This document shows, in pieces, positions 1,114 through 43,574 of a DNA stretch of 43,574 nt. The DNA is from Methanocella sp. Its GTDB lineage: Archaea > Thermoproteota > Bathyarchaeia > Bathyarchaeales > Bathycorpusculaceae. Position 1 is the first letter of the stretch, and each line of letters begins with the position of its first letter. The stretch lies in contig JBLNCY010000055.1 of NCBI GenBank assembly GCA_050261115.1, forward strand, positions 1-43,574, given 5' to 3'. A model generated the notes under the pieces. It was not told the origin of the DNA, made no database searches, and was given only the letters and a program-made list of their open reading frames with translations. Both the position numbers and the translations under genes were made by a program.

Positions 1114-2203
1114 TAGACCTTAGTCCCTATTACATACCGATTTTTCCTTTGGACATTTATCACTAACTGATCCGATTTTAGATAATTAATTTTCCAGCTA
1201 TACGAAAGTTAACCAATCCGCTAACAACATCAGTCATAACATCGTAATGTTTGAGGCGGTTCCTAAACTCATCAGCCCATATACGAAACTTTTTCACCCT
1301 AGAATACGTATGCTCCACAACCACCCTCTCCTTCGACAACGCCTTATTGAAAGCCTTCTGCTCCTCTGAAAGCTCCTCTGCCTTGACACCTATTTTGCCT
1401 CGTCCAGGATTTTTCCTCTTGATAGGCAACACGCAGTTCAGTTTAGGATAATCATCCTTTATTCCAAGATAGCCCAAATCAAAATATTGAAGCACTCTAT
1501 CAGGCAAATATGGGTGGCTATGCTTGTAGAGAGCGTAGTCATGCATGCTTCCCCTAACATGACTTGTCTTATGCACGATTAGGCCTTGTTTATTCACAGT
1601 GAACTGAGTCTTTACGGTGTGTTTCTTTCTTTTGCCGCTGTAGTGTGTCTTACGTTTACGCTTGCCATGTGGTCGCGGGATTTCTTGCTCGGTTGCATCC
1701 AAGAAAGCCTTAAAGCTTGGAAACATTGCTTCAATTTCCTCAACCGACTGTAGCCGCCTGACCTTGTCATGCTCCAATTTTGGCAGAGGTAGAACCTCTC
1801 TAACCAGAGGCTCTAGTTTTCTGATGCTTTTGAGCACGCTGGTTTGGCTGATACAGAAGAGGTAGCCTAAAAGTGTTGATGACGGATACATATGGTAGTA
1901 AATGAGGAGCATGAGTAAGCGGTCTGTTAGGGAGAGGCGAAATGGGTGGCCTGCGCCGACTGCTCTTTTTCTATTCTCTCGCTTTAGCCGTTTTTCTTCA
2001 AAGGCGGGGTATTTCTCGTTTATCCTTTGGTTTAGGGTGTCGAATTCTTGTAGTTGGAGGCCTGAAAAATTCCTAAAATGCAGGGGATTTTTAGATAATG
2101 CTCTGTAATTTAGCATGCAAACAGCTCAAAAGCCAAATATTGGGCTCATATGCTAATAAAACCTTCGTTTCAGCCTTAAAACGTTAATTGAAACTAAGGT
2201 CTA
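1114..2203 (-). mobile_element. IS5-family (ISL2-like) insertion sequence
   Basis: Terminal inverted repeats TAGACCTTAGT (1114-1124) and ACTAAGGTCTA (2193-2203), extending imperfectly to about 19 bp, bracket one transposase ORF; the outer TA is the probable target-site duplication. Confidence 0.88.
1178..2116 (-). CDS. IS5-family DDE transposase (HTH_Tnp_4 + DDE_Tnp_4 type)
   Basis: N-terminal helical region (LSLTDRLLMLLIYY); catalytic-type motifs LDATEQ, YSGKRKKHTVK, FDLGYLG and ERVVVEH. Confidence 0.92.
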   Translation of the reverse strand: MLNYRALSKNPLHFRNFSGLQLQEFDTLNQRINEKYPAFEEKRLKRENRKRAVGAGHPFRLSLTDRLLMLLIYYHMYPSSTLLGYLFCISQTSVLKSIRKLEPLVREVLPLPKLEHDKVRRLQSVEEIEAMFPSFKAFLDATEQEIPRPHGKRKRKTHYSGKRKKHTVKTQFTVNKQGLIVHKTSHVRGSMHDYALYKHSHPYLPDRVLQYFDLGYLGIKDDYPKLNCVLPIKRKNPGRGKIGVKAEELSEEQKAFNKALSKERVVVEHTYSRVKKFRIWADEFRNRLKHYDVMTDVVSGLVNFRIAGKLII

Positions 2204-10425: not shown

Positions 10426-11409
10426 ATGGCTGGAGAAATAATAGGCGACATACTTAGGCTAACAGTGCTAGGCGGGCTGGGCATCGCAGGCATAGTTGCG
10501 ATTCTGCTCTGGAAAAAGAACCTAGCAACCCGCGTAACGTTCCTGCGATTTGTCATTCAGGCAGTCGCAGCCGCCGCAATCTTTTACGTCTTCTCATACA
10601 CCATACCCATGCTCTACGCGTTGTTGTTTATCTTTATTGCTTCGATCTTTCTTGGCCGCTTCTACTGCGGCTGGCTCTGCCCATTAGGCTTAATCCTTGA
10701 TCTAGAAAGCCTTCTTAGGCGAGCACTCAAAGTAAGACACCGAATAATCCCCGACAAACTAAACATAGCACTCCACAAAGGGCGCTACCTAATCCTGCTT
10801 GTCTTCCTACTCATACCCATAGCATTCTGGATTTCCGACCCCCAAGAAATAATGGTTTCCCCCCTAATGGCACAGCTACTCGCGGGACATTACCGGGTGT
10901 ACAACTTAATTCTTGATCCCATGATTCCCTTCGTCGTTCCCTGGAGTGGCTCAGGAACAATCGCATTGCTTGACGTGAACTTTTCTTTCCCCTATGCCCA
11001 AAACATCATAACCTTCACAAATGAAACCATAGGCCCCTTCCTCGCAATCGCTTTTGTCGCCGTAGTCTTAGTTGGCGGGTTCCTTATCCGAAGGGTCTGG
11101 TGCCGCTTCTGCCCCACAGGCGTCTCAATAGCTGCCCTTAACCAATTCAAGGCTTTCAAGGCCCTTCCATTCTTATACGTTGATAAGGATGAGAAGAAAT
11201 GCACCAAATGTGGCGTCTGCAAACGTGTATGCACTGTGCAAGTTAACGAGGTGTATGAGCAGAAGGGTGGCAAAATCGGCACTTCACAATGTATGCTCTG
11301 CGCTAGGTGTGTTGAGATGTGCCCCTATGAGGATACGTTGAAACTGAAGTTTGGTAACAAGACCGTGTTTCGTTCAAGAAACTGGTTAGAACAACCGAGG
11401 ACTGAATGA
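10426..11409 (+). CDS. NapH/MauN-type membrane 4Fe-4S protein
   Basis: TM helices, GRFYCGWLCPLG and RVWCRFCPTG motifs, plus two C-terminal ferredoxin motifs CTKCGVCKRVC and CMLCARCVEMCP. Confidence 0.9.
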   Translation: MAGEIIGDILRLTVLGGLGIAGIVAILLWKKNLATRVTFLRFVIQAVAAAAIFYVFSYTIPMLYALLFIFIASIFLGRFYCGWLCPLGLILDLESLLRRALKVRHRIIPDKLNIALHKGRYLILLVFLLIPIAFWISDPQEIMVSPLMAQLLAGHYRVYNLILDPMIPFVVPWSGSGTIALLDVNFSFPYAQNIITFTNETIGPFLAIAFVAVVLVGGFLIRRVWCRFCPTGVSIAALNQFKAFKALPFLYVDKDEKKCTKCGVCKRVCTVQVNEVYEQKGGKIGTSQCMLCARCVEMCPYEDTLKLKFGNKTVFRSRNWLEQPRTE

Positions 11410-11419
11410 GGAGAATGAG

Positions 11420-12751
11420 ATGAAAAATCAAACCCCTGAAAGAAGATATTTGCCTGAAGTTTCCCCCAAGGAAATGGAAGAACTAAGAACCACTGTGAAA
11501 GCTGCCAGCCAAAGAATCATAGCCGACAACATCGAGCGCATGAAAAAAGCTGACCCCCACCGCCCAGAAGCTATGAAGTACTTTGATGACGTCGCTAACC
11601 TCTTTGGCAAACGTCAACAGGAAATCGAGGCAGAAAAAGCCAAGGGCAAAAAAGTCATCGGGTACATGTGCCTCTTCGCCCCCACCGAACTCATAACCGC
11701 CGCAGACGCCATACCCGTCCGAGTTAACTCTGGCTGGTATGATACCTCAAAACTCGGCGACCGCGTTGTACCAGTCGAGGTTTGTCCAGTTATCCGCTCC
11801 ACCATCGGAGCCAAAATGATTCAACTCTCACCGTTCCTTGAACAAAGCGACGCACTCATAAGTGTCTTAACCTGCGATGGCATGACTAAACTCAGCGAAA
11901 TCCTAAGCGACCAAAAAACCATCTGGGGCATGAACATACCACGCGTAAAAGACTCCGCGCAATCCCTAAGATTCTGGAACGACGAAATCAGAGCCATGAA
12001 GAAACAGATCGAAGAATTCACCGGCAACAAGATTGACCGCAAAAGCCTAAAAGAAGCCATAGAAATCAGCCACCGCGCAACCAGAGTCTTCCGCCGACTT
12101 CAAGAGCTCCGCAAGGGCAACCCCGTCATAATGGGCCGAGACGCTATGCTAGTTAACCAAGCCTACCAATGGGATGACAAGGTACGCTGGACAGAAAACG
12201 CTGAAAAACTCTGTAAAGAACTCGAAGAACGCGCGGAACGCAAGGATTGGGTTGTTAGCCCCGATACACCCCGCGTTATGGTTACAGGAACCCCAATGTT
12301 TTGGCCAGACAACTGGAAGCTACCCACACTGGTCGAAGAAGGCAACCCGCCAGGCATCATCGTGGCAGACGAACAATGCAGCGGCGAACGCATACTAAAC
12401 GACCCCATCGGAGTAGACGAATGGAGCATGGATGACATGCTGAACGCCATAAGCGAACGCTACCTCATGGCATCCACCTGCCCCTGCTTCACAAGCAAAG
12501 ACGGCAACGAAGACCGCATCAACTGGTTACTCACAAAAATCAAGGACTGGAACATCCAAGGCGTCATCTACTACGTCATCCGCGGATGCATGCTCTATGC
12601 CATGGAATACAGCCGCGTAAAAAAGACCTTAGACAAAATTAATGTCCCAGTTTACTATTTGGATACAGAATACACAAGGGAAGACGTCGGTCAAATGAAA
12701 ACCCGTGTAGAGGCTTTCCTTGAAATGCTAAATGCGAGAGTGGATTTCTAA
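11420..12751 (+). CDS. 2-hydroxyacyl-CoA dehydratase-family protein, double-cubane cluster protein (DCCP)-like
   Basis: Six Cys positions matching the DCCP pattern (GYMC, EVCPVIRS, TCDG, EQCSGER, TCPCF, GCMLY) and C-terminal DVGQMKTRVEAFLEM. Confidence 0.85.
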   Translation: MKNQTPERRYLPEVSPKEMEELRTTVKAASQRIIADNIERMKKADPHRPEAMKYFDDVANLFGKRQQEIEAEKAKGKKVIGYMCLFAPTELITAADAIPVRVNSGWYDTSKLGDRVVPVEVCPVIRSTIGAKMIQLSPFLEQSDALISVLTCDGMTKLSEILSDQKTIWGMNIPRVKDSAQSLRFWNDEIRAMKKQIEEFTGNKIDRKSLKEAIEISHRATRVFRRLQELRKGNPVIMGRDAMLVNQAYQWDDKVRWTENAEKLCKELEERAERKDWVVSPDTPRVMVTGTPMFWPDNWKLPTLVEEGNPPGIIVADEQCSGERILNDPIGVDEWSMDDMLNAISERYLMASTCPCFTSKDGNEDRINWLLTKIKDWNIQGVIYYVIRGCMLYAMEYSRVKKTLDKINVPVYYLDTEYTREDVGQMKTRVEAFLEMLNARVDF

Positions 12752-13534
12752 ATGATAACAGCCGGAATGGACCTAGGAACCCAACGAGTCAAAGCCGTAG
12801 TCCTAAAAGACGGCGTAGTCGTTGGCAGAGCACAGGCTTTCTCTGGGTTTGACCCCACAAAAGCCGCCGAAGAAGCCATAAACGAAGCCCTAAAACAGGC
12901 AAACCTAAAACTAAGCGACGTACAGCACTTCGCCGCAACCGGCTCAGCAATGAGCATGGCACCCTACGAACACACCACCGTCTCTATGATGAGTGCCGAC
13001 GCCAAAGCAGGCGTGCACCTTATCCCCACCGCCCGAACCATAATTGACGTGGGCGCGGAAGAAGCAAGAGCCGTAAAATGCGACGAACGAGGAGTAATGG
13101 CAGACTTTGTAGTCAACGAACGCTGCGCCGCCGGAGCAGGAGCATTCATCGAAGCCATGGCACGAGCGTTAGAAGTTAAACTCGAAGACATGGGACCACT
13201 CTCCCTGCAAGCCGAGCGCGCAAGCCCCATCAACGCTTCATGCGTCATCTTCGGCGAATCCGACGTCGTCTCTCTAATTCACCGCCAAGAATCCAAACCC
13301 GAAATCAGCCGAGCAGTATTTGACGCCATGGCCGACCGCGTATCCTCCATGATTCACCGCTTAGGCATAAACCCCGACGTCGTCCTAGTCGGCGGCGTCG
13401 CAAAAGACATCGGGTTTGTTACATCGCTAAACCGCAAACTGGGCTTGACAGTAAAAATCCCCGAATACCCAGAATACGCAGGGGCACTTGGTGCAGCATT
13501 AATCGCCACATCACGCGTTAAAGGAGGCGCCTAA
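12752..13534 (+). CDS. ASKHA ATP-dependent activator, BzdP-like subunit
   Basis: GMDLG, DVGAEEARAV, NERCAAGAGAFIEAMARALE, CVIFGESDVVSLIH and GALGAAL. Confidence 0.85.
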   Translation: MITAGMDLGTQRVKAVVLKDGVVVGRAQAFSGFDPTKAAEEAINEALKQANLKLSDVQHFAATGSAMSMAPYEHTTVSMMSADAKAGVHLIPTARTIIDVGAEEARAVKCDERGVMADFVVNERCAAGAGAFIEAMARALEVKLEDMGPLSLQAERASPINASCVIFGESDVVSLIHRQESKPEISRAVFDAMADRVSSMIHRLGINPDVVLVGGVAKDIGFVTSLNRKLGLTVKIPEYPEYAGALGAALIATSRVKGGA

Positions 13535-13535
13535 A

Positions 13536-14435
13536 TTGACAGAGCCCGTTAAAGAAGAATTCTGGCGCTGGCAAGAATACCACCGCATTGTCCCCGGCAA
13601 GAAATGGAGCAAAAACGACATCATCACAGCAGGCGTTGACGTGGGTTCAGTCGGCTCCAAAGCAGCCATCATGGTTAACGGCGAAGCCTACGCATGGGGC
13701 ATCACACGCACCGGCTCAAACAGCCCCGAATCCGCCAAAAAAGCCCTCGACTACGCCCTACAAGACACAGGCCTCAAAGTAAGCGACCTCAACTACATCG
13801 TCGGCACCGGCTATGGCCGAGTAAACGTCCCGATGGCCAACAAAGCCATCACCGAAATCGCCTGCCATGCCAAAGGCGCCAACTACATCTGGGGCCCCAA
13901 AGTCCGCACCGTCCTAGACGTCGGCGGACAAGACATTAAAGCCATCAAAATCGACGAAACCGGCCGCGTAGTCAGCTTCCTCATGAACGACAAATGCGCC
14001 GCAGGCACAGGACGAGGCATGGAAGTCTTCGCCGATCTGCTCCAAATCCCCATCGAAGAAATAGGCGACATCTCCCTAAAAGTGGAAAAAGAACCCGACC
14101 CCGTCAGCTGCACATGCGTAGCCTTCGCAAAGACCGAAGCTATGGGCTTACTCCGCAAAGGCTGGTCCAAAGAAAAAGTCCTAGCCGCATACACACGCGC
14201 TATGGCTGTACGCATGGCTAACCTCATCAACCGCGTCGGCTTAGAACCCGAACTCGTCGTCACAGGCGGCCAATCCAAAAATATCGGTATAGTCAGCCGC
14301 ATTGAAGTCATTTTGGGACAGAAAACATTGCCGATGCCTCGATGGCGCGAAGACGGCTTAGACCCCATGGTTGCAGGCGCCCTTGGTGCCGCGTCGTTGG
14401 CGAAGTCCCTATACGAGAAGGCACAGAAGACTTAG
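13536..14435 (+). CDS. ASKHA ATP-dependent activator, BzdQ-like subunit
   Basis: N-terminal EFWRW, GVDVGSVGSK, GTGYGR, TEIACHAKGA, DVGGQD and MNDKCAAGTGRGMEVFADLL. Confidence 0.87.
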   Translation: MTEPVKEEFWRWQEYHRIVPGKKWSKNDIITAGVDVGSVGSKAAIMVNGEAYAWGITRTGSNSPESAKKALDYALQDTGLKVSDLNYIVGTGYGRVNVPMANKAITEIACHAKGANYIWGPKVRTVLDVGGQDIKAIKIDETGRVVSFLMNDKCAAGTGRGMEVFADLLQIPIEEIGDISLKVEKEPDPVSCTCVAFAKTEAMGLLRKGWSKEKVLAAYTRAMAVRMANLINRVGLEPELVVTGGQSKNIGIVSRIEVILGQKTLPMPRWREDGLDPMVAGALGAASLAKSLYEKAQKT

Positions 14436-25597: not shown

Positions 25598-25780
25598 ATG
25601 ACAGAGCAACAAAACGGCTCCAACCCCTACCTCAAATGCCCCCACTGCGCCTGCATCTTTTTTTCGCAGGCAGACCTCCAAAAACACATGGCGGCGTTTG
25701 GGCAAAACAAGGAGCAGCACATAGCAAATTACCGAAAGATTCATGGTCGGCTTGAGCATGGCTATGGCAGCGACGAATAA
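25598..25780 (+). CDS. Small zinc-finger-like protein (60 aa)
   Basis: C-x2-C-x3-F-x5-L-x2-H core; starts 9 nt after the ileS stop. Confidence 0.6.
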   Translation: MTEQQNGSNPYLKCPHCACIFFSQADLQKHMAAFGQNKEQHIANYRKIHGRLEHGYGSDE

Positions 25781-25961
25781 CCTTTAGCTTTTTTAGCTTA
25801 CTTTTAAGCCCATTGACCCGTCATGGGCAACCGAAACTACGCACCACAGGTACTGAGCTAAACGGGAGTCCTATATTGTCTGCTAGGGAAGATGGCAATC
25901 TGTTGCTTGTTGGCAATAGCTTTATTATTTCACACAAGTACTTTTCTGGCGGTGTAAGCGT

Positions 25962-27002
25962 ACGGAAGAAGCAACAATCTGGGAACCCGCAGACGGAGAC
26001 ACCTTCGTCACAAAAGACGGATTCATTATGAACACATTCGGCTACGAGCACCCTGACGACAGGGTATTCGCATTCCTCAAGTACATCCCCGCCAAGTACA
26101 AGGAACTATTCGATGTCGAGATGCTCATGCGCACATGGAGATTCGGCACAAATCCCCTCACCAGCCAGCTTTTCCGTGCAGAAAAACTCTATACAGCCAA
26201 AAACTATCAAACGTTTATTGAGGCGTTCCGCAAGAACTTTCCTGATTACCTCTACTTCGACCAAACACGGGGCAAAGAACTCATCACCGCTCCCCTGGAT
26301 AAGATTGAGCAGGTTTTTGTTCCCAAAGACCGCTTAGTCTGGCTCCGGAACCTCAAAAACCCCGATGACTTCCAAAGGATGGCTCTGGAACTAATCGACC
26401 TCGTGCAGAGAGAATCAGACGTACCCTACGAGGACCTGGGGCTACATGGCTCGACAGCTTTAGAGATGCATTCGCCTGAATCAGACATAGACTTCGTCGT
26501 CTATGGCACCGCGAACTTCCGACGAGTCGAACAAACCCTCCAAATCCTCGCTAATCAGGGCGTAGTCAGCTACATAGCTGGTAACCGCATAGAGGCAGCA
26601 AGGCATTTTGTCGGCAAGTACAAAGGCAAAATCTGGATGTACAACGCCACCCGAAAGCCAGAAGAAATCAAGGGCAAATACGGCGACTACACCTACACGC
26701 CACTGGCGCCTGTGCGGTTCTGGGCAACCATCTGCGACGATACCGAAACAATGTATCGGCCTGCAATCTACAAAATAAGTAACTATAAACCCATGGATCC
26801 GCAATCTGAACTTCAACTCGAACAAATCCCAGTACAGGTCGTCTCAAACATAGGTTGCTACCGAAATGTCGCACGCGTAGGGCAGCAAGTCAAAGTTGCA
26901 GGCACCCTAGAGAAAGCCACCTCCACCACAGACGGCACCAGCTTCTACCAAGTAGTCGTAGGCACAGCTACCAGCGAAGAAGAATACATATGGCCAGCCT
27001 AA
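25962..27002 (+). CDS. COG1665-like nucleotidyltransferase (Pol-beta superfamily), paralog 1
   Basis: GLHGS-x10-DIDFVVYG; homology to the two neighbours extends upstream of ATG 26028 ([16 protein letters not shown]); probable start at ACG 25962. Confidence 0.85.
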
Positions 27003-28063
27003 AACTACGTGACCGCGACGCTATACAAAGCGCAGAAGGCATCATCTTCCGAGTCTTCGGATACAGCCACCCCCCAAACGCGTATCTCTGCGACGCGGAA
27101 TACGCCAGCCAAAAAATCTTCAACTCCAAAGACCCCCGAGCCCCACGCGAAGCACCAGGCGAACTCTACTACAAATTCTACAACGACGAAGGCATGAAAC
27201 TCGTCGCCAAAAACTATCCACAGTACTTGGTCCAGCATGAGATGCTTGGGTTAAAACTCGTAGGCGTCCCCCATGACCTGATCGCAGAGGTTCGTCAGCC
27301 ACAGCCCAGGCTCCAGGAGCTACTAAAAAAGGGCCCAACAGACCAACTCTTGGCGGCGATGATGCGTGTGTTAGACATCGCCTCAAAACAGTCAGGCGTC
27401 GATAAGGAAAGCTTTGGCGTCTTCGGCTCCATGCTGCACGGCTTTCATCACCCAAAATACAGCGACATCGACTTCACCATCTATGGCAAAACGGAAAACC
27501 GCAAAATCCGCGAAACCAACGCCGAACTATACAATGACCCAAACAGCGGCTTAACCAATGAATTTGCCTCTGAAAAAGCCATGGAGGGCAAACGATGGCT
27601 GTTTAGGAACTTTACCGTTCAGGACTTTGTGTGGCATCAGCGTCGAAAATTCATCTACGGCCTCTATGACGACCGCAAGCATAGCGGCAGAATCATTAAA
27701 GCCGAATTCGAACCCATAAAAGATTGGAGCGAAATCCAAAACGAATACAGATCCAACACGCGTATAGTACCTAAGGGCTGGGTGAAACTCAAAGCTAAAG
27801 TAACCGCCGACGATGACGGACCATTCATTCCATCCATCTACGGCATAGAACCCCTCGAGGTTCTCGATGGGCCAAGAGAAGCCATAGAGGTCAAGCGTGT
27901 CTTTAGTTACATGGAGGAATTTCGCCAACAAGTCCAACGCGACGAAACCGTCATAGTTGAAGGCAACCTCGAAGAAGTCCAATCGCCCAACGGCAGCTAC
28001 ATGCAGGTTACCCTGACGTACTGCCCACGCTACTACGAGCAGGTGCTAAAAGCGCTGCATTAA
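26990..28063 (+). CDS. COG1665-like nucleotidyltransferase, paralog 2
   Basis: ATG 26990 ([21 protein letters not shown]), GVFGS-x11-DIDFTIYG and C-terminal [10 protein letters not shown]. Confidence 0.88.
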
Positions 28064-29073
28064 TGCAGAAGCACCATGTAATCTTCTGGCTTATTGCCCA
28101 AAATCAACCGATAATGTGTCTTACCGCTTTTTTCGGTGACTAACTCGATTTTACCCTGCGCCTCGATAGATTCGCCGGCGGTGACTTGCATGCAGAAGCG
28201 ACCTCGGAAAGAAACCGCTTCAGTGATAGACGCCAGTTTGGGACCCTCAAGCACCTCAACGCCATCAAGTGTGTAGCTGCAGGGCGTAAAAAGTGCATCT
28301 TCACCGTTTACAACGGCACCTCTGATTTTGCAGTAACCCCCATTTTGATAGTGTACGTCGCCGTATTGTTCGGCTGTTTCGTTCCAGTCTTTTAGGAAGC
28401 GGATGAAGTAGTCGGTTCCCATAAACATGCCCTGAAACGCCTTCCGATTCTCAACATGCTTGAAGTCTTCAAAGGTCATCTGTGTGTCTTTGACGCGGAA
28501 GTCATAGAGGGTTCCAAGTTCAGATTCGGTATAGGCTTTGAAGCCTGAGCCTTCAGTTTCACGCAGCTCCTGTAGCGCTGTGTATGCTTTTTGGCTATTT
28601 TCGATGCCGTACACAAGCGGGTCTATGTCGGAGGTATCTGTAGTTAGTCCCGCCATGATAGAACCAGAGATGCCTATGGCGCTCCAAGGAATATCTGCCT
28701 TCTCTTTGAGTGTTGCCGCTAGACGGTAGGCTTTTTCCTCCAGTGGGGTGCGGTTTTTGGATTCACGGAGCTGGGTTAACTTGTCTGTTGGTTTATAGAC
28801 CTCCACGATTTGGTCGATTGGGACTTCGCAGAGCGTTTCACCAAAAACCGGGTCAAAGACGATTAGGTCTGGGTGGTGTTTTTGTAGGTATGCGAATCGT
28901 TCGTTTAGACTGTAGACTTTGCCGTAGGTTGTGTTGTTGGCTTTGCGGGCGCCGTCTGCTTGGGGAATAAACCGTGGGAAAGCGATGACTTTGTCTTTGG
29001 GGTGGACGGTACCCTTTACATCGAAAACTACGTTAGCTTTTGTTCGTATTAAGTCGCCTTCGCGAGTCAGCAT
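28060..29073 (-). CDS. COG1665-like nucleotidyltransferase, paralog 3
   Basis: REGDLI..FDVKGTVHP, GISGS-x10-DIDPLVYG, SFRGRF and GESIEAQGKIE. Confidence 0.88.
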   Translation of the reverse strand: MLTREGDLIRTKANVVFDVKGTVHPKDKVIAFPRFIPQADGARKANNTTYGKVYSLNERFAYLQKHHPDLIVFDPVFGETLCEVPIDQIVEVYKPTDKLTQLRESKNRTPLEEKAYRLAATLKEKADIPWSAIGISGSIMAGLTTDTSDIDPLVYGIENSQKAYTALQELRETEGSGFKAYTESELGTLYDFRVKDTQMTFEDFKHVENRKAFQGMFMGTDYFIRFLKDWNETAEQYGDVHYQNGGYCKIRGAVVNGEDALFTPCSYTLDGVEVLEGPKLASITEAVSFRGRFCMQVTAGESIEAQGKIELVTEKSGKTHYRLILGNKPEDYMVLLH

Positions 29074-29162
29074 CTATGTTGTATCCTTCTTCATTTGTGT
29101 GTACAAAACTACATAACGTTAATAAGGGTTTTTTCGGAGGGTTATAGAACGGTTATCAGATA

Positions 29163-30119
29163 ATGCAAAGAAACTGCACCTGCGAAAAAGCCCAACACAT
29201 ACAAAGATGCCTACAACTCGCCATCATCCTGGAAGTCAGCGCAGACAAACCGGGAAACGTTAATTTGGTGGTTGATTTTGAAGGCACCCGTGTAGAGCAT
29301 TTTTTGGCTTCCTCCGTCGCCGCCGGCCCCTCGTTTATGGATGCGGCTTACCGCGGAATCGAAATCGCCCAAAACAAACGCAAACTAGACAAAGCGGGAT
29401 TGGGCGAGATTATCCTTTGGGGCATCAAGGATATTGACCAATGGCAGCATGGCGGCAACACGTTACTTGGAACAATCATGCTCTTTGCGCCTTTGGCAGT
29501 TGCAGCCGGCATGACCCCCGTGGACGAACAGTACCGATTCGATTTTGGGGTATTGCGCAGAAACATGGAAGCATTAATTAGAGCTTCAACCGCAAAGGAT
29601 TCCGTCGACGTCTACGAGGCAATTGAGGTCGCTAAGCCTAGCGGTCTTAACAGCGCACCCGACTTAAGCGTAAAAGATCAAAACAGCAAAACCCGCCTCA
29701 TCAACGAAAACATCACCTTGCAACAAGTCTTCAAAATCGCCGCCGCCTACGATGACATCTGTAGCGAATGGACAAACAACTTCCCAATTACCTTCGACCT
29801 TGCATACCCCTACCTACAAAACGAGTTAAAACACAAAGACCGAAACACCGCCATCGTAAACAGCTTCCTAAAAGTGCTCGCAACCCACCCAGACACATTC
29901 ATCAGCCGCAAGGTAGGCCTAGAAAAAGCCCAAGAAGTCTCAGCGGGAGCACAGGAAATCCTTGACTTAGGCGGAGTCGAAACAGAAAAGGGCAAGCAGG
30001 CGCTAATCGCCTTTGACAAAAAGCTCCGAAAAGCAGGCAACGACTATAACCCTGGCACAACCGCGGATATTATTGCTACTGCTTTGGCTTTAACGACGTT
30101 AAGCGGCTACCGCCCATAG
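29163..30119 (+). CDS. citG: CitG-family (triphosphoribosyl-dephospho-CoA synthase-like) protein
   Basis: LEVSADKPGNV, GNTLLG, PDTFISRKVG and NPGTTADI motifs of archaeal-type CitG homologs. Confidence 0.85.
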   Translation: MQRNCTCEKAQHIQRCLQLAIILEVSADKPGNVNLVVDFEGTRVEHFLASSVAAGPSFMDAAYRGIEIAQNKRKLDKAGLGEIILWGIKDIDQWQHGGNTLLGTIMLFAPLAVAAGMTPVDEQYRFDFGVLRRNMEALIRASTAKDSVDVYEAIEVAKPSGLNSAPDLSVKDQNSKTRLINENITLQQVFKIAAAYDDICSEWTNNFPITFDLAYPYLQNELKHKDRNTAIVNSFLKVLATHPDTFISRKVGLEKAQEVSAGAQEILDLGGVETEKGKQALIAFDKKLRKAGNDYNPGTTADIIATALALTTLSGYRP

Positions 30120-30599: not shown

Positions 30600-31156
30600 G
30601 AATCACTAAGCTGGTTACCCATAGCTTCACCCTTAAATCTACCTCTAAATCCAACGGTTGATTTGCACTCTGCAGGGCTAACGTGATATTGGCCCTTCTT
30701 ATGCCTATGACGCTATGGGCAAAAGGCGATTGGAATAGCCAAACAGTATCTATCGGTAAAAAACACCTGCAGTAACAATCGACCTTGATTCATTCCCCCC
30801 ACAAAAACCCACTCTGTTTTGCTTCGGATTAATTCAAAGAACTTTGCCAAGTTAGCGGTGTGGGCTCATTTAGTGGGTCTTATTCCATGACGTCTGAGGG
30901 GACTGGGCGGTTCTGGCTAATGCAGCTGAGACTAGGCTGTGGATAGTTCGCAGTATATGTTACGGTTAAGAAGATGCCGCTTTATCATAGGTACGCTATA
31001 CCTACATTACTGCTGTTGATTGTTTTGTTGTTTGTGGGTGACGCGGTTTACTTTTTGAATGGTAAAAAGTGTTGTTCTGACCTAAGCCGATTAGTATATA
31101 TTTCAATTATGCAGGTATTAGTAATATTAACTGTTAATATCAGAGGCGCACAAGTT

Positions 31157-32188
31157 ATGGAGAGAAAAATCATGTCGCTGGGCAAATCATCACTAGTAAT
31201 CTCCCTACCCAAAGAGTGGATGCAGCTAAACGACCTAAAAAAAGGCGACACCATCTCCTTCAACATCCAAAAAGACCGCTCACTAGTCATCTACCCGAGC
31301 AGCCTAAAACGATCTGAAGAAAAAACAATCACCCTAAACATCCAATCCAACGAAGAAGAAATCCTAATCACACAAAAAATCTTAGGCGCATACCTAAACG
31401 GGTACACAGCCATCACACTCGCCTCCGAGGGAATCTTTACTGTACCCCAAACCCGAGCCATCCGCAACATGGCCGGCCGCCTCTACATGCGAGTCATGGA
31501 AGCCGACGCCAAATGCGTCAACATCCAAAGCCTGATGGATGAATCCAAAGCCTCACTCGAGCAAGCCATCCAACGCATGCACCTCATCTCACGCTCCATG
31601 TGCGAAGGCGCCTTCACCGCCCTCAAAAACAATGACGTCCCCCTAGCAAAATCCTCATACTCCCTCGACGATGACGTCGACCACTTCGCATTCTTAATCA
31701 TGCGCATTCTACGTAATGCCGCACAGAACCCCCACCTCGCCAACGAACTCCACATAGACCCCATAGACTGCATGGATCACCAAACCCTAATCACCCGAAT
31801 GGAACACGCCTCTGACTACGCAGCCGAGATCACCAAACATGTCATTATGCTAAACGGAGCCAAACAAACTATCCCTGACGACGTCTTATTATTAATGGTG
31901 AAAGCAGGCACCGAAGTAACCGAACTCTATGTCAAAGCCGTGGAGGCATTCTTTTCTAAAGACGTCAACGCCGCCGTCAACATAATGAAGCACCGCCAAA
32001 AACTCGAAAAACTCGATGTCGAAATCACATCCAAATCATTCATCGGACCGCAAAAAAGTGCAGAACTCGTCTGCGGCATATGCAGCATACGAGATAACAT
32101 AAAACGCATCAGCCACTGCACCTTTAGCATCGCAGAAATCGCAGTTAACCGAGCCTTTAAAGTACCAACACCAGAAATTACAAAATAG
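31157..32188 (+). CDS. phoU: Phosphate uptake regulator (AbrB-type DNA-binding domain + PhoU repeats)
   Basis: RKIMSLGKSSLVISLPKEW...LKKGD, GAYLNGY, DDDVDHF and MEHASDYA; true start is ATG 31157 after GAGG. Confidence 0.88.
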   Translation: MERKIMSLGKSSLVISLPKEWMQLNDLKKGDTISFNIQKDRSLVIYPSSLKRSEEKTITLNIQSNEEEILITQKILGAYLNGYTAITLASEGIFTVPQTRAIRNMAGRLYMRVMEADAKCVNIQSLMDESKASLEQAIQRMHLISRSMCEGAFTALKNNDVPLAKSSYSLDDDVDHFAFLIMRILRNAAQNPHLANELHIDPIDCMDHQTLITRMEHASDYAAEITKHVIMLNGAKQTIPDDVLLLMVKAGTEVTELYVKAVEAFFSKDVNAAVNIMKHRQKLEKLDVEITSKSFIGPQKSAELVCGICSIRDNIKRISHCTFSIAEIAVNRAFKVPTPEITK

Positions 32189-43496: not shown

Positions 43497-43574
43497 GGGC
43501 CGGTAGATCAGTCTGGTATGATCGCCGCGTTCGCAACGCGGAAGCCGCGGGTTCAAATCCCGCTCGGTCCACCA
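43497..43574 (+). tRNA. tRNA-Ala(CGC), CCA encoded
   Basis: 78-nt cloverleaf; acceptor GGGCCGG/TCGGTCC with the G3:U70 Ala identity pair; anticodon stem CCGCG/CGCGG, loop TT-CGC-AA. Confidence 0.97.

Follow-up and report, generated by a model that had tools for sequence, protein, structure and literature searches.

A conserved archaeal gene cluster of nucleotidyltransferase paralogs and a CitG-like protein, probably linked to late assembly or salvage of a methanopterin-type cofactor side chain

Three diverged nucleotidyltransferase genes (NT1, NT2 and NT3) and one gene for a CitG-like protein were analysed in a stretch of 43,574 nucleotides from Methanocella sp. (class Bathyarchaeia; assembly GCA_050261115.1, contig JBLNCY010000055.1), the whole of which is called the window below. 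Judged from their sequences and gene neighbourhoods, the four genes probably form a conserved archaeal module for the late-step assembly or the salvage of the side chain of a methanopterin-type one-carbon (C1) cofactor. NT1 (25962..27002, forward strand, 346 codons) and NT2 (26990..28063, forward strand, 357 amino acids) overlap by 13 nt. NT3 (28060..29073, reverse strand, 337 amino acids) converges on NT2 with an overlap of 4 nt and is divergent from the CitG-like gene (29163..30119, forward strand, 318 amino acids, with a PF01874 domain) across an intergenic region of 89 bp (29074..29162). These open reading frames (ORFs), overlaps and the gap agreed with the figures of an earlier note on this DNA, which had described three adjacent nucleotidyltransferase paralogs beside a CitG homolog. 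The source genome (2.15 Mb, 94.85% complete) contained these three NT copies only and a single CitG-like gene. Carriers of the methanopterin type are the basis of methanogenesis, of the anaerobic oxidation of methane, of the Wood-Ljungdahl pathway in archaea and of formaldehyde oxidation in bacteria. The biosynthesis of methanopterin was outlined in cell extracts decades ago, yet to our knowledge no genes are assigned to its late steps, in which alpha-ribose 5-phosphate and hydroxyglutarate are attached.

Conservation of the cluster was followed in 41 related Bathyarchaeia genomes (genomes, contigs, loci and families are numbered with G, C, L and f, respectively). NT genes were found in 37 and a CitG-like gene in 35 of them; the four NT-negative relatives also lacked CitG (G004, 71% complete; G028, 92%; G032, 91%; G034, 98%), and two NT-positive relatives were without it (G009, 56% complete; G033, 97%). 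Of the 35 relatives with both, 29 had the CitG-like gene and an NT gene no more than 3.3 kb apart; in the other six the two were on different contigs (five genomes) or 24 kb apart (one genome). When 80 CitG loci were taken from species genomes by using a CitG alignment, NT genes were present in 42. The distance was at most 90 bp in 33 of these and about 0.9-1.05 kb in seven more, with one locus each at 3 kb and 6 kb. The CitG-adjacent copy in related loci was NT3. The 38 loci without NT comprised four cut at a contig end, one of a distant Bathyarchaeon and 33 from outside the Bathyarchaeia. In the distant family f30, genes for Metallophos_3, CitG, NT and DUF1464 were contiguous on one strand.

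The co-occurrence of the two families was recorded across 201 evenly sampled Thermoproteota genomes, without a statistic because related genomes are not independent. NT was found in 98 and CitG in 94 (both in 91, NT only in 7, CitG only in 3, neither in 100). Of the 121 genomes searched in the phylum to which a Methanobacterium genome belongs, all had NT (E 1e-55 to 1e-110) and 120 had CitG, each as a single copy apart from three split NT matches, and the two were at separate sites wherever both positions were listed. The association of NT with CitG is more than chance, because the clustering is conserved. The functional link between the NTs and the CitG homolog proposed in the earlier note was supported by this adjacency in relatives and loci together with the co-occurrence in two phyla; the note would have been refuted by an adjacency that is not conserved in related genomes, and there the adjacency is conserved.

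Irregular gene models were also seen. The split NT matches (G283:C13:44285-45406, G304:C1:1684714-1685838 and G325:C32:36660-37757) each consisted of two pieces in one ORF of 393-399 amino acids and look like an insertion of about 50 residues near profile position 180-195. NT and CitG genes appeared as many short overlapping ORF pieces in several 'MFD' assemblies (L016, L023, L033, L038, L040, L057 and L058), which looks like assembly frameshift errors rather than decay.

The gene neighbourhood of relatives pointed to methanopterin. NT genes sit within methanopterin biosynthesis clusters in three lineages. In a genome of the same order (G121), the contiguous genes were NT, NT, CitG, DUF447, an MptE-like protein, a flavoprotein with Fe-S clusters (Fer4), DUF1464, PTPS, an RFAP-synthase-type GHMP protein and a pterin-binding MptH-like protein. 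In a genome of the same class (G067), they were RFAP synthase, DUF447, MptE, an MptH-like protein, MptA (GCHY-1), MptD (DHNA), NT and NT. With profiles built from the genes of these two genomes, MptE, DUF447, CitG, NT and NT were detected in L085. DUF447 was the commonest direct neighbour of CitG. L007, L065, L071, L079 and L086 each had a CitG-DUF447 pair with RFAP synthase, MptA and MptE a few kb away, and L094 had the pair as well; in these six loci, L085 and L005, the CitG-like gene was in the neighbourhood of mch or methanopterin biosynthesis genes. Methenyl-tetrahydromethanopterin (H4MPT) cyclohydrolase (Mch) was encoded within 10 kb in 19 of the 80 CitG loci, 18 of which belong to the 42 that hold NT, and directly adjoined CitG in L022 and L025.

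RFAP synthase (TIGR00144, E<=1e-20) was found in 74 of the 201 Thermoproteota genomes, 71 of which were NT-positive, and the families without NT and CitG (f16, f20, f21, f24, f26, f32 and f35) were also without RFAP synthase. Among 14 control genomes, CitG matched E. coli, M. jannaschii, H. volcanii, S. acidocaldarius and M. acetivorans, and RFAP synthase, DUF447 and the MptE-like protein matched the same four archaea. The source genome itself encodes Mch (3e-115) and an MptH-like domain. The cofactor context, rather than a citrate-lyase one, that the earlier note had supposed was thus borne out by the location of NT and CitG relatives in methanopterin gene clusters, and, as the note had stated, the window held no citrate lyase or malonate decarboxylase genes. 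The target had been left in that note as a protein, an RNA or a cofactor; it is most likely a methanopterin-type cofactor rather than a protein, neither the acyl carrier protein nor CitX having been found in the genome.

Genes for DUF1464 and a Metallophos_3 phosphoesterase shared gene runs with CitG and NT in distant Thermoproteota (L011:6462-9552, L012:6690-8331 and L005:12587-13750); by their positions, DUF1464, Metallophos_3 and DUF447 are candidates for further methanopterin steps. In Euryarchaeota SCGC AAA252-I15 (G236, L098:2109-4095), a RimK-type ATP-grasp gene was divergent from a single NT gene; ATP-grasp ligases extend cofactor tails in methanogens.

The CitG-like protein matched PF01874 with an E value of 3.8e-69 and 233.9 bits over profile positions 2-283 of 284, and its relative in the PDB was 3h9p (E 9e-16). 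The equivalog models for CitG/MdcB (NF002315, TIGR03132, TIGR03125 and NF007503) matched its C-terminal third alone (residues about 195-313), with 61.9, 48.7, 42.8 and 23.5 bits against cut-offs of 280, 282, 272 and 477, respectively, none of which was reached. By these scores the protein is not an equivalog of CitG/MdcB. The acyl carrier protein of citrate lyase and malonate decarboxylase (PF06857) was not found in the source genome at its 94.85% completeness, CitX (PF03802) had no match anywhere in it, and the three NTs had no Pfam match to the CitX/MdcG families at E<=0.1. The missed cut-offs and the failure to find either protein fit a different acceptor. A classical prosthetic-group system, in which CitG would make triphosphoribosyl-dephospho-CoA and the NTs would attach it to a carrier protein, is very unlikely on the same evidence, although it would suit the strong PF01874 match and a pairing of CitG with a nucleotidyltransferase fold that mirrors CitG/CitX and MdcB/MdcG. 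The gene context was one of pterin and C1 genes, not of a lyase or decarboxylase, and PF06857 and PF03802 matched E. coli alone among the control genomes, though four control archaea carry CitG-like genes.

Pairwise identity of the three NTs was 24-26%, and the motif G-x-x-GS ... S-D-I-D ... Y-G was kept in all of them. In a family alignment of 137 sequences (the three NTs and 134 cluster representatives), G143, G146, S147, D159, D161, G166, G325 and E328 (NT2 numbering) were invariant, H27 and P28 were nearly so, and the catalytic GS and DxD residues were invariant in every NT clade. All motifs given in the earlier note for a shared architecture with an intact Pol-beta motif were present in the paralogs, and most were invariant or nearly so across the family. 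The nucleotidyltransferase profile PF01909 matched NT1, NT2 and NT3 with E values of 3.3e-5, 7e-6 and 1e-3 (24.6, 26.7 and 19.4 bits), respectively; NT3 fell under the curated cut-off of 21 bits and the other two were above it. At 50% identity the family comprised 1422 clusters at E<=0.001 and 422 at E<=1e-30, and the names seen for them were 'predicted nucleotidyltransferase', 'uncharacterized protein conserved in archaea' or 'hypothetical' (in Protein Atlas, 'hypothetical protein' clusters alone).

The weak PF01909 and PF18765 matches, together with a match of NT1 to MntA (NF047752) at 15.7 bits against a cut-off of 60, are what could speak for NTs acting independently of CitG, as MNT-type antitoxins or defence nucleotidyltransferases, with an adjacency that means nothing for function. 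This is highly improbable: different orders and phyla share the adjacency and the co-occurrence, a HEPN partner was not seen, the NTs are roughly threefold larger than MNT antitoxins, and NT2 orthologs are highly conserved (72-92% identity among the top 120 clusters). NF047752 had no match for NT2 or NT3. The identity of the NTs as MNT antitoxins was rejected by size, conservation and failed cut-offs.

In phylogenetic trees, NT1, NT2 and NT3 formed well-supported clades (100% for NT1), together with a fourth clade (NT4) and a clade containing single copies of Methanobacteriaceae and of one euryarchaeote. The paralogs are therefore old, and the statement of the earlier note that they are no recent duplication agreed with both their identity and their separate clades. 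The NT3 clade was the largest among the Thermoproteota sequences sampled. A pair of NT3 and NT4 types was found in many Thermoproteota (G121, L085, G067, G064 and G134), all four types in G040, and NT1, NT2 and NT3 in the source genus; in Bathyarchaeia the family is expanded to three to five paralogs. A few close homologs, 60-85% identical to Bathyarchaeia genes, were also filed under bacterial names (Oculatellaceae cyanobacterium, Binatia, Sulfotelmatobacter) and one under Nanoarchaeia, and these are likely mis-binned contigs.

The AlphaFold2 model of NT2 (predicted local distance difference test, pLDDT, 96.9) was divided into a predicted small beta-barrel, a nucleotidyltransferase core and an OB fold. 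Residues 115-247 formed a core of the Pol-beta type, aligned to TUT7, TdT, GLD-2, MenT1 and Pol beta/X at Z 5.8-6.9 (the first four being the best, at 6.4-6.9), with a root-mean-square deviation of 2.8-4.5 Å over 89-109 residues and moderate scores. Residues 258-357 formed the OB fold, aligned to SSB, RPA and the MCM N-terminal domain at Z 6-7.1. Residues 1-110, modelled alone (pLDDT 90.7), gave the barrel, with weak matches (Z<=4.1) to Lsm/Sm, KOW and CcdB/MazF folds; as modelled, this domain has no readable function. With Foldseek against the PDB, neither the whole NT2 model nor its N-terminal domain had a match at E<=0.001, and the NT2 sequence found nothing under E 0.9 among solved structures. 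In the fold searches only the core of NT2 aligned to RNA nucleotidyltransferases, and the three NTs had no Pfam match at E<=0.1 to PAP-associated domains or to the head, neck, body or tail domains of CCA-adding enzymes.

Such folds could suggest that the NTs are directed to RNA, by 3'-tailing of tRNA or small RNA or by modification of a base with ribosyl phosphate, with the OB fold and the barrel binding RNA and CitG supplying a ribosyl-triphosphate. The nearest relatives of the core, as listed above, include terminal uridylyl and poly(A) polymerases, the C-terminal domain matches those of SSB, RPA and MCM, the barrel is weakly Sm/Lsm- and KOW-like, and NT is universal and single-copy in the Methanobacterium phylum, like a housekeeping RNA enzyme. 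We consider such a role quite unlikely, however. All the fold scores are in a range common for unrelated matches. No RNA-processing genes recur beside the NTs, whereas methanopterin genes and Mch do. About half of the sampled Thermoproteota are without NT, largely families also without RFAP synthase, which would be odd for a core RNA function, and there was no Rfam RNA in the region. Across the whole window, the sole Rfam match was a tRNA at 43497-43571 (forward strand), with no riboswitch near the cluster.

A reaction scheme for a methanopterin module can be drawn from known chemistry. CitG displaces adenine from ATP, by which an alpha-linked 5-triphosphoribosyl group is placed on the 2'-OH of dephospho-CoA, and CitX or MdcG joins the alpha-phosphate of the triphosphoribosyl group to a serine hydroxyl of the acyl carrier protein, with the loss of pyrophosphate. 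Methanopterin bears an alpha-ribofuranosyl 5-phosphate on the terminal hydroxyl of its aminophenyl-ribitol, and this ribose phosphate forms a diester with (S)-2-hydroxyglutarate. The pair of CitG and CitX builds a linkage of that kind, and a CitG-like enzyme with a nucleotidyltransferase acting after it would build the one in methanopterin. The CitG-like enzyme would use ATP as the ribosyl donor, release adenine and attach 5-triphospho-alpha-D-ribosyl to a cofactor precursor, at the terminal hydroxyl of its aminophenyl-ribitol; inversion from the beta-linked ATP would explain the alpha linkage. An NT, in a role like that of CitX/MdcG, would then join the alpha-phosphate to a hydroxyl acceptor, pyrophosphate being released and a phosphodiester formed. 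In methanopterin proper the acceptor would be (S)-2-hydroxyglutarate, and another alcohol is possible. As for the extra NT copies, they may be sequentially acting enzymes, parts of a complex or enzymes that attach other groups; when the NT1 and NT2 complex was predicted with two alignments, the score was 0.00 in both runs, which speaks neither for nor against a heteromer. What the data show is the gene order, its conservation, the co-occurrence, the fold, the intact catalytic motifs and the presence of the genes in RNA-library contigs; the substrates, the reaction order and the roles of the paralogs are inferred. The scheme in full, in which the NT family and the archaeal CitG-like protein would close the methanopterin side chain, with ATP and not phosphoribosyl pyrophosphate (PRPP) donating the alpha-ribosyl 5-triphosphate and NT making the hydroxyglutarate phosphodiester with release of pyrophosphate, is put forward tentatively, as a possible one.

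Several observations weigh against a methanopterin module. The window itself held no methanopterin gene, and searches of the source genome as assembled (94.85% complete) found no RFAP synthase, DUF447 or MptE; because these three genes lie together in relatives, one unassembled piece could hold them all, which is a guess. In the 33 non-Bathyarchaeia loci, which include those of Methanobacteriaceae, Terraquivivens and Altiarchaeales, no NT was present within 10 kb of CitG. Of the 98 NT-positive Thermoproteota genomes, 27 were without RFAP synthase at E<=1e-20; in five genomes of this kind that were examined (G052, G164, G177, G228 and G030, 95-100% complete), none had RFAP synthase above the cut-off, and the MptH-like domain was absent from four. 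The domains that flank the NT core resemble nucleic-acid-binding folds (Z about 7 for the OB fold and about 4 for the small barrel). Finally, the cell-extract work of R. H. White in 1996 reportedly named PRPP, not ATP, as the ribosyl donor.

Mch was retained in all five of the examined genomes. In three of them (G177, G052 and G164), without RFAP synthase and without the MptH-like domain, a gene for an energy-coupling factor (ECF) transporter S component lay between CitG and NT3. G029 and seven of the 80 loci likewise had this gene between CitG and NT3, and in G040 it was located next to NT3; all seven loci with a CitG-NT gap of about 0.9-1.05 kb hold it in the gap. The S component, a weak match to ECF-ribofla_trS, was recorded at L099:12268-13086 and L100:10934-11932 and in L101, L104, L046, L050-L054, L074 and L009. 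Just upstream in G177 were the gene for Mch and genes with matches to the Pfam families that the four subunits of formylmethanofuran dehydrogenase would be expected to show. To judge by its family and position, the S component may import a cofactor precursor, and the pattern suggests that the CitG/NT module completes a salvaged precursor in genomes negative for RFAP synthase.

The same loci could be read in favour of another cofactor or metabolite that co-occurs with H4MPT metabolism (methanofuran, a molybdopterin derivative or a nucleotide-sugar-like storage compound), or of the salvage of an unrelated vitamin-like compound. Fwd-type genes, an ATP-binding cassette (ABC) transporter and MobB were found near the cluster in L099 and L100, an ECF S-component gene is embedded between CitG and NT3 in several loci, and the 27 NT-positive genomes lack RFAP synthase. 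We regard this as unlikely. The direct neighbours of NT are mptA, mptD, mptE, the gene for the MptH-like protein and RFAP synthase; S. acidocaldarius, a control without Mch, still has CitG, DUF447, the MptE-like protein and RFAP synthase; and we know of no other archaeal cofactor with an alpha-ribosyl-5-phosphodiester.

The start of NT1 was examined by comparison. Between the in-frame stop at 25917 and an ATG at 26028 there was no ATG, GTG or TTG, and the conserved N-terminal motif of the family (W-x-P-x-DGDTFVT) is encoded upstream of 26028 in NT1. When the window and 29 orthologs (in L016-L058, L074 and L010) were aligned, the codon at 25962 was ACG in 22 of the 30 NT1 genes, and the remaining ones had ATG, GTG, TTG or another codon at, or near, this position. 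The upstream element of NT1 (25920..25964, forward strand, including the ACG at 25962-25964) contained CGGTGT 8 nt 5' of the start, and in orthologs GGTG usually preceded the ACG by 6-8 nt, with an in-frame TAA between the two in three of them (L017, L034 and L054). A conserved, non-canonical ACG thus seems to serve as the start codon of NT1; it stands at 25962, where the earlier note had placed the start.

Six runs recorded as metatranscriptomes contained 63-71% of the sampled words of the stretch, and contigs were placed on it from four runs, one from each of four studies. These RNA-library contigs covered all four genes and bridged the NT1/NT2 junction in all four runs. The listed contigs began at 25964-25967 (three runs), ended at 29078-29082 (four runs) and began at 29169-29176 (three runs), that is, at or slightly inside the starts of NT1, NT3 and CitG, respectively; the first of these agrees with the comparative evidence for the ACG start. 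The two upstream intergenic stretches were covered by no listed contig, and uncovered stretches were not counted as absence. The coincident contig ends would fit leaderless or near-leaderless transcripts, and they give a weak hint of both this and separate transcription units for NT1-NT2, NT3 and CitG.

Other genes of the window were recorded as well. A 60-codon ORF (25598-25780, forward strand), which starts 10 nt past the isoleucyl-tRNA synthetase gene and is partly covered by RNA-library contigs, encodes a C-x2-C ... H-x-x-x-H pattern like that of a small zinc finger. Downstream of CitG, a 404-amino-acid protein (30974-32188, forward strand) had an AbrB/MazE-type DNA-binding domain and PhoU domains. 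A gene run at 10426-14435 (forward strand) encodes an Fe-S protein, a protein like the D component of 2-hydroxyglutaryl-CoA dehydratase and two activator ATPases of the BcrAD/BadFG type, with no link to the NT/CitG cluster shown. A DDE transposase gene was located at 1178-2116 (reverse strand).

If the proposal is true, the three to five NT paralogs of Bathyarchaeia, together with an ECF-type importer that is sometimes embedded in the cluster, could complete scavenged precursors or remodel them into undescribed side-chain variants, and NT, present in every sampled genome of the Methanobacterium phylum, would be a candidate new target in methanogenesis. The analysis suggests that many Bathyarchaeia import the precursor rather than make it, which bears on their ecology and cultivation. 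With two expressible candidates (an NT and the CitG-like protein) and a precise chemical hypothesis, the question of the late steps becomes directly testable.

A CitG-like gene in methanopterin islands has already been published, with no reaction assigned to it in the available parts of the two papers concerned. In the methanotroph Methylosinus trichosporium OB3b, orf7 of the H4MPT island follows mch and orf5 (PMC3615186), and in the methanotroph Methylomonas sp. DH-1 the gene for methenyl-H4MPT cyclohydrolase is followed directly by those for alpha-L-glutamate ligase and triphosphoribosyl-dephospho-CoA synthase, the gene in the orf7 position bearing the last annotation (PMC11533326). The likeness to the Bathyarchaeia loci is a CitG-like gene near mch and methanopterin-linked genes; the difference is that the islands, as far as these partial texts go, list no NT partner (PMC3615186, PMC11533326). 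In the parts of PMC8305020 and PMC3087415 that were available, CitG was not mentioned. No paper linking the NT family to methanopterin was found in the literature searched, which left out most subscription journals; none on COG1665, none on DUF447 in connection with methanopterin and none that assigns enzymes to the late steps was found there, and among the papers listed none dealt, by title or abstract, with the function of the archaeal CitG-like protein.

As far as is known, methylotrophic bacteria make dephospho-H4MPT without the phosphate-hydroxyglutarate tail, and if so they would need no NT step. A close parallel to the cluster is provided by CitG/CitX and MdcB/MdcG, in which a PF01874 protein is likewise paired with an enzyme of nucleotidyltransferase fold and the same two-step logic would apply, an ATP-derived triphosphoribosyl group being followed by a phosphodiester with loss of pyrophosphate. 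Unlike CitX/MdcG, the NTs are without CitX/MdcG sequence matches and have an additional N-terminal barrel and C-terminal OB fold; unlike the CitG/MdcB systems, the CitG-like protein is under the equivalog cut-offs and occurs without the acyl carrier protein in a pterin/C1-cofactor context. With the Pol-beta nucleotidyltransferases of PF01909 (TUTases, poly(A) polymerase, MenT and CCA-adding enzymes), the NTs have the hG[GS]...DxD motif and the core fold in common, but their domain architecture is distinct from that of the RNA and minimal nucleotidyltransferases, and their gene context points to a small-molecule substrate. By analogy, CofC/CofD of F420 and CobU/CobY-CobS of cobamides also close a cofactor tail by nucleotidyl-type activation followed by transfer to a hydroxyl; these systems differ in having unrelated folds and in that the activation comes from GTP, not from a ribosyl-triphosphate that a CitG-like protein would make.

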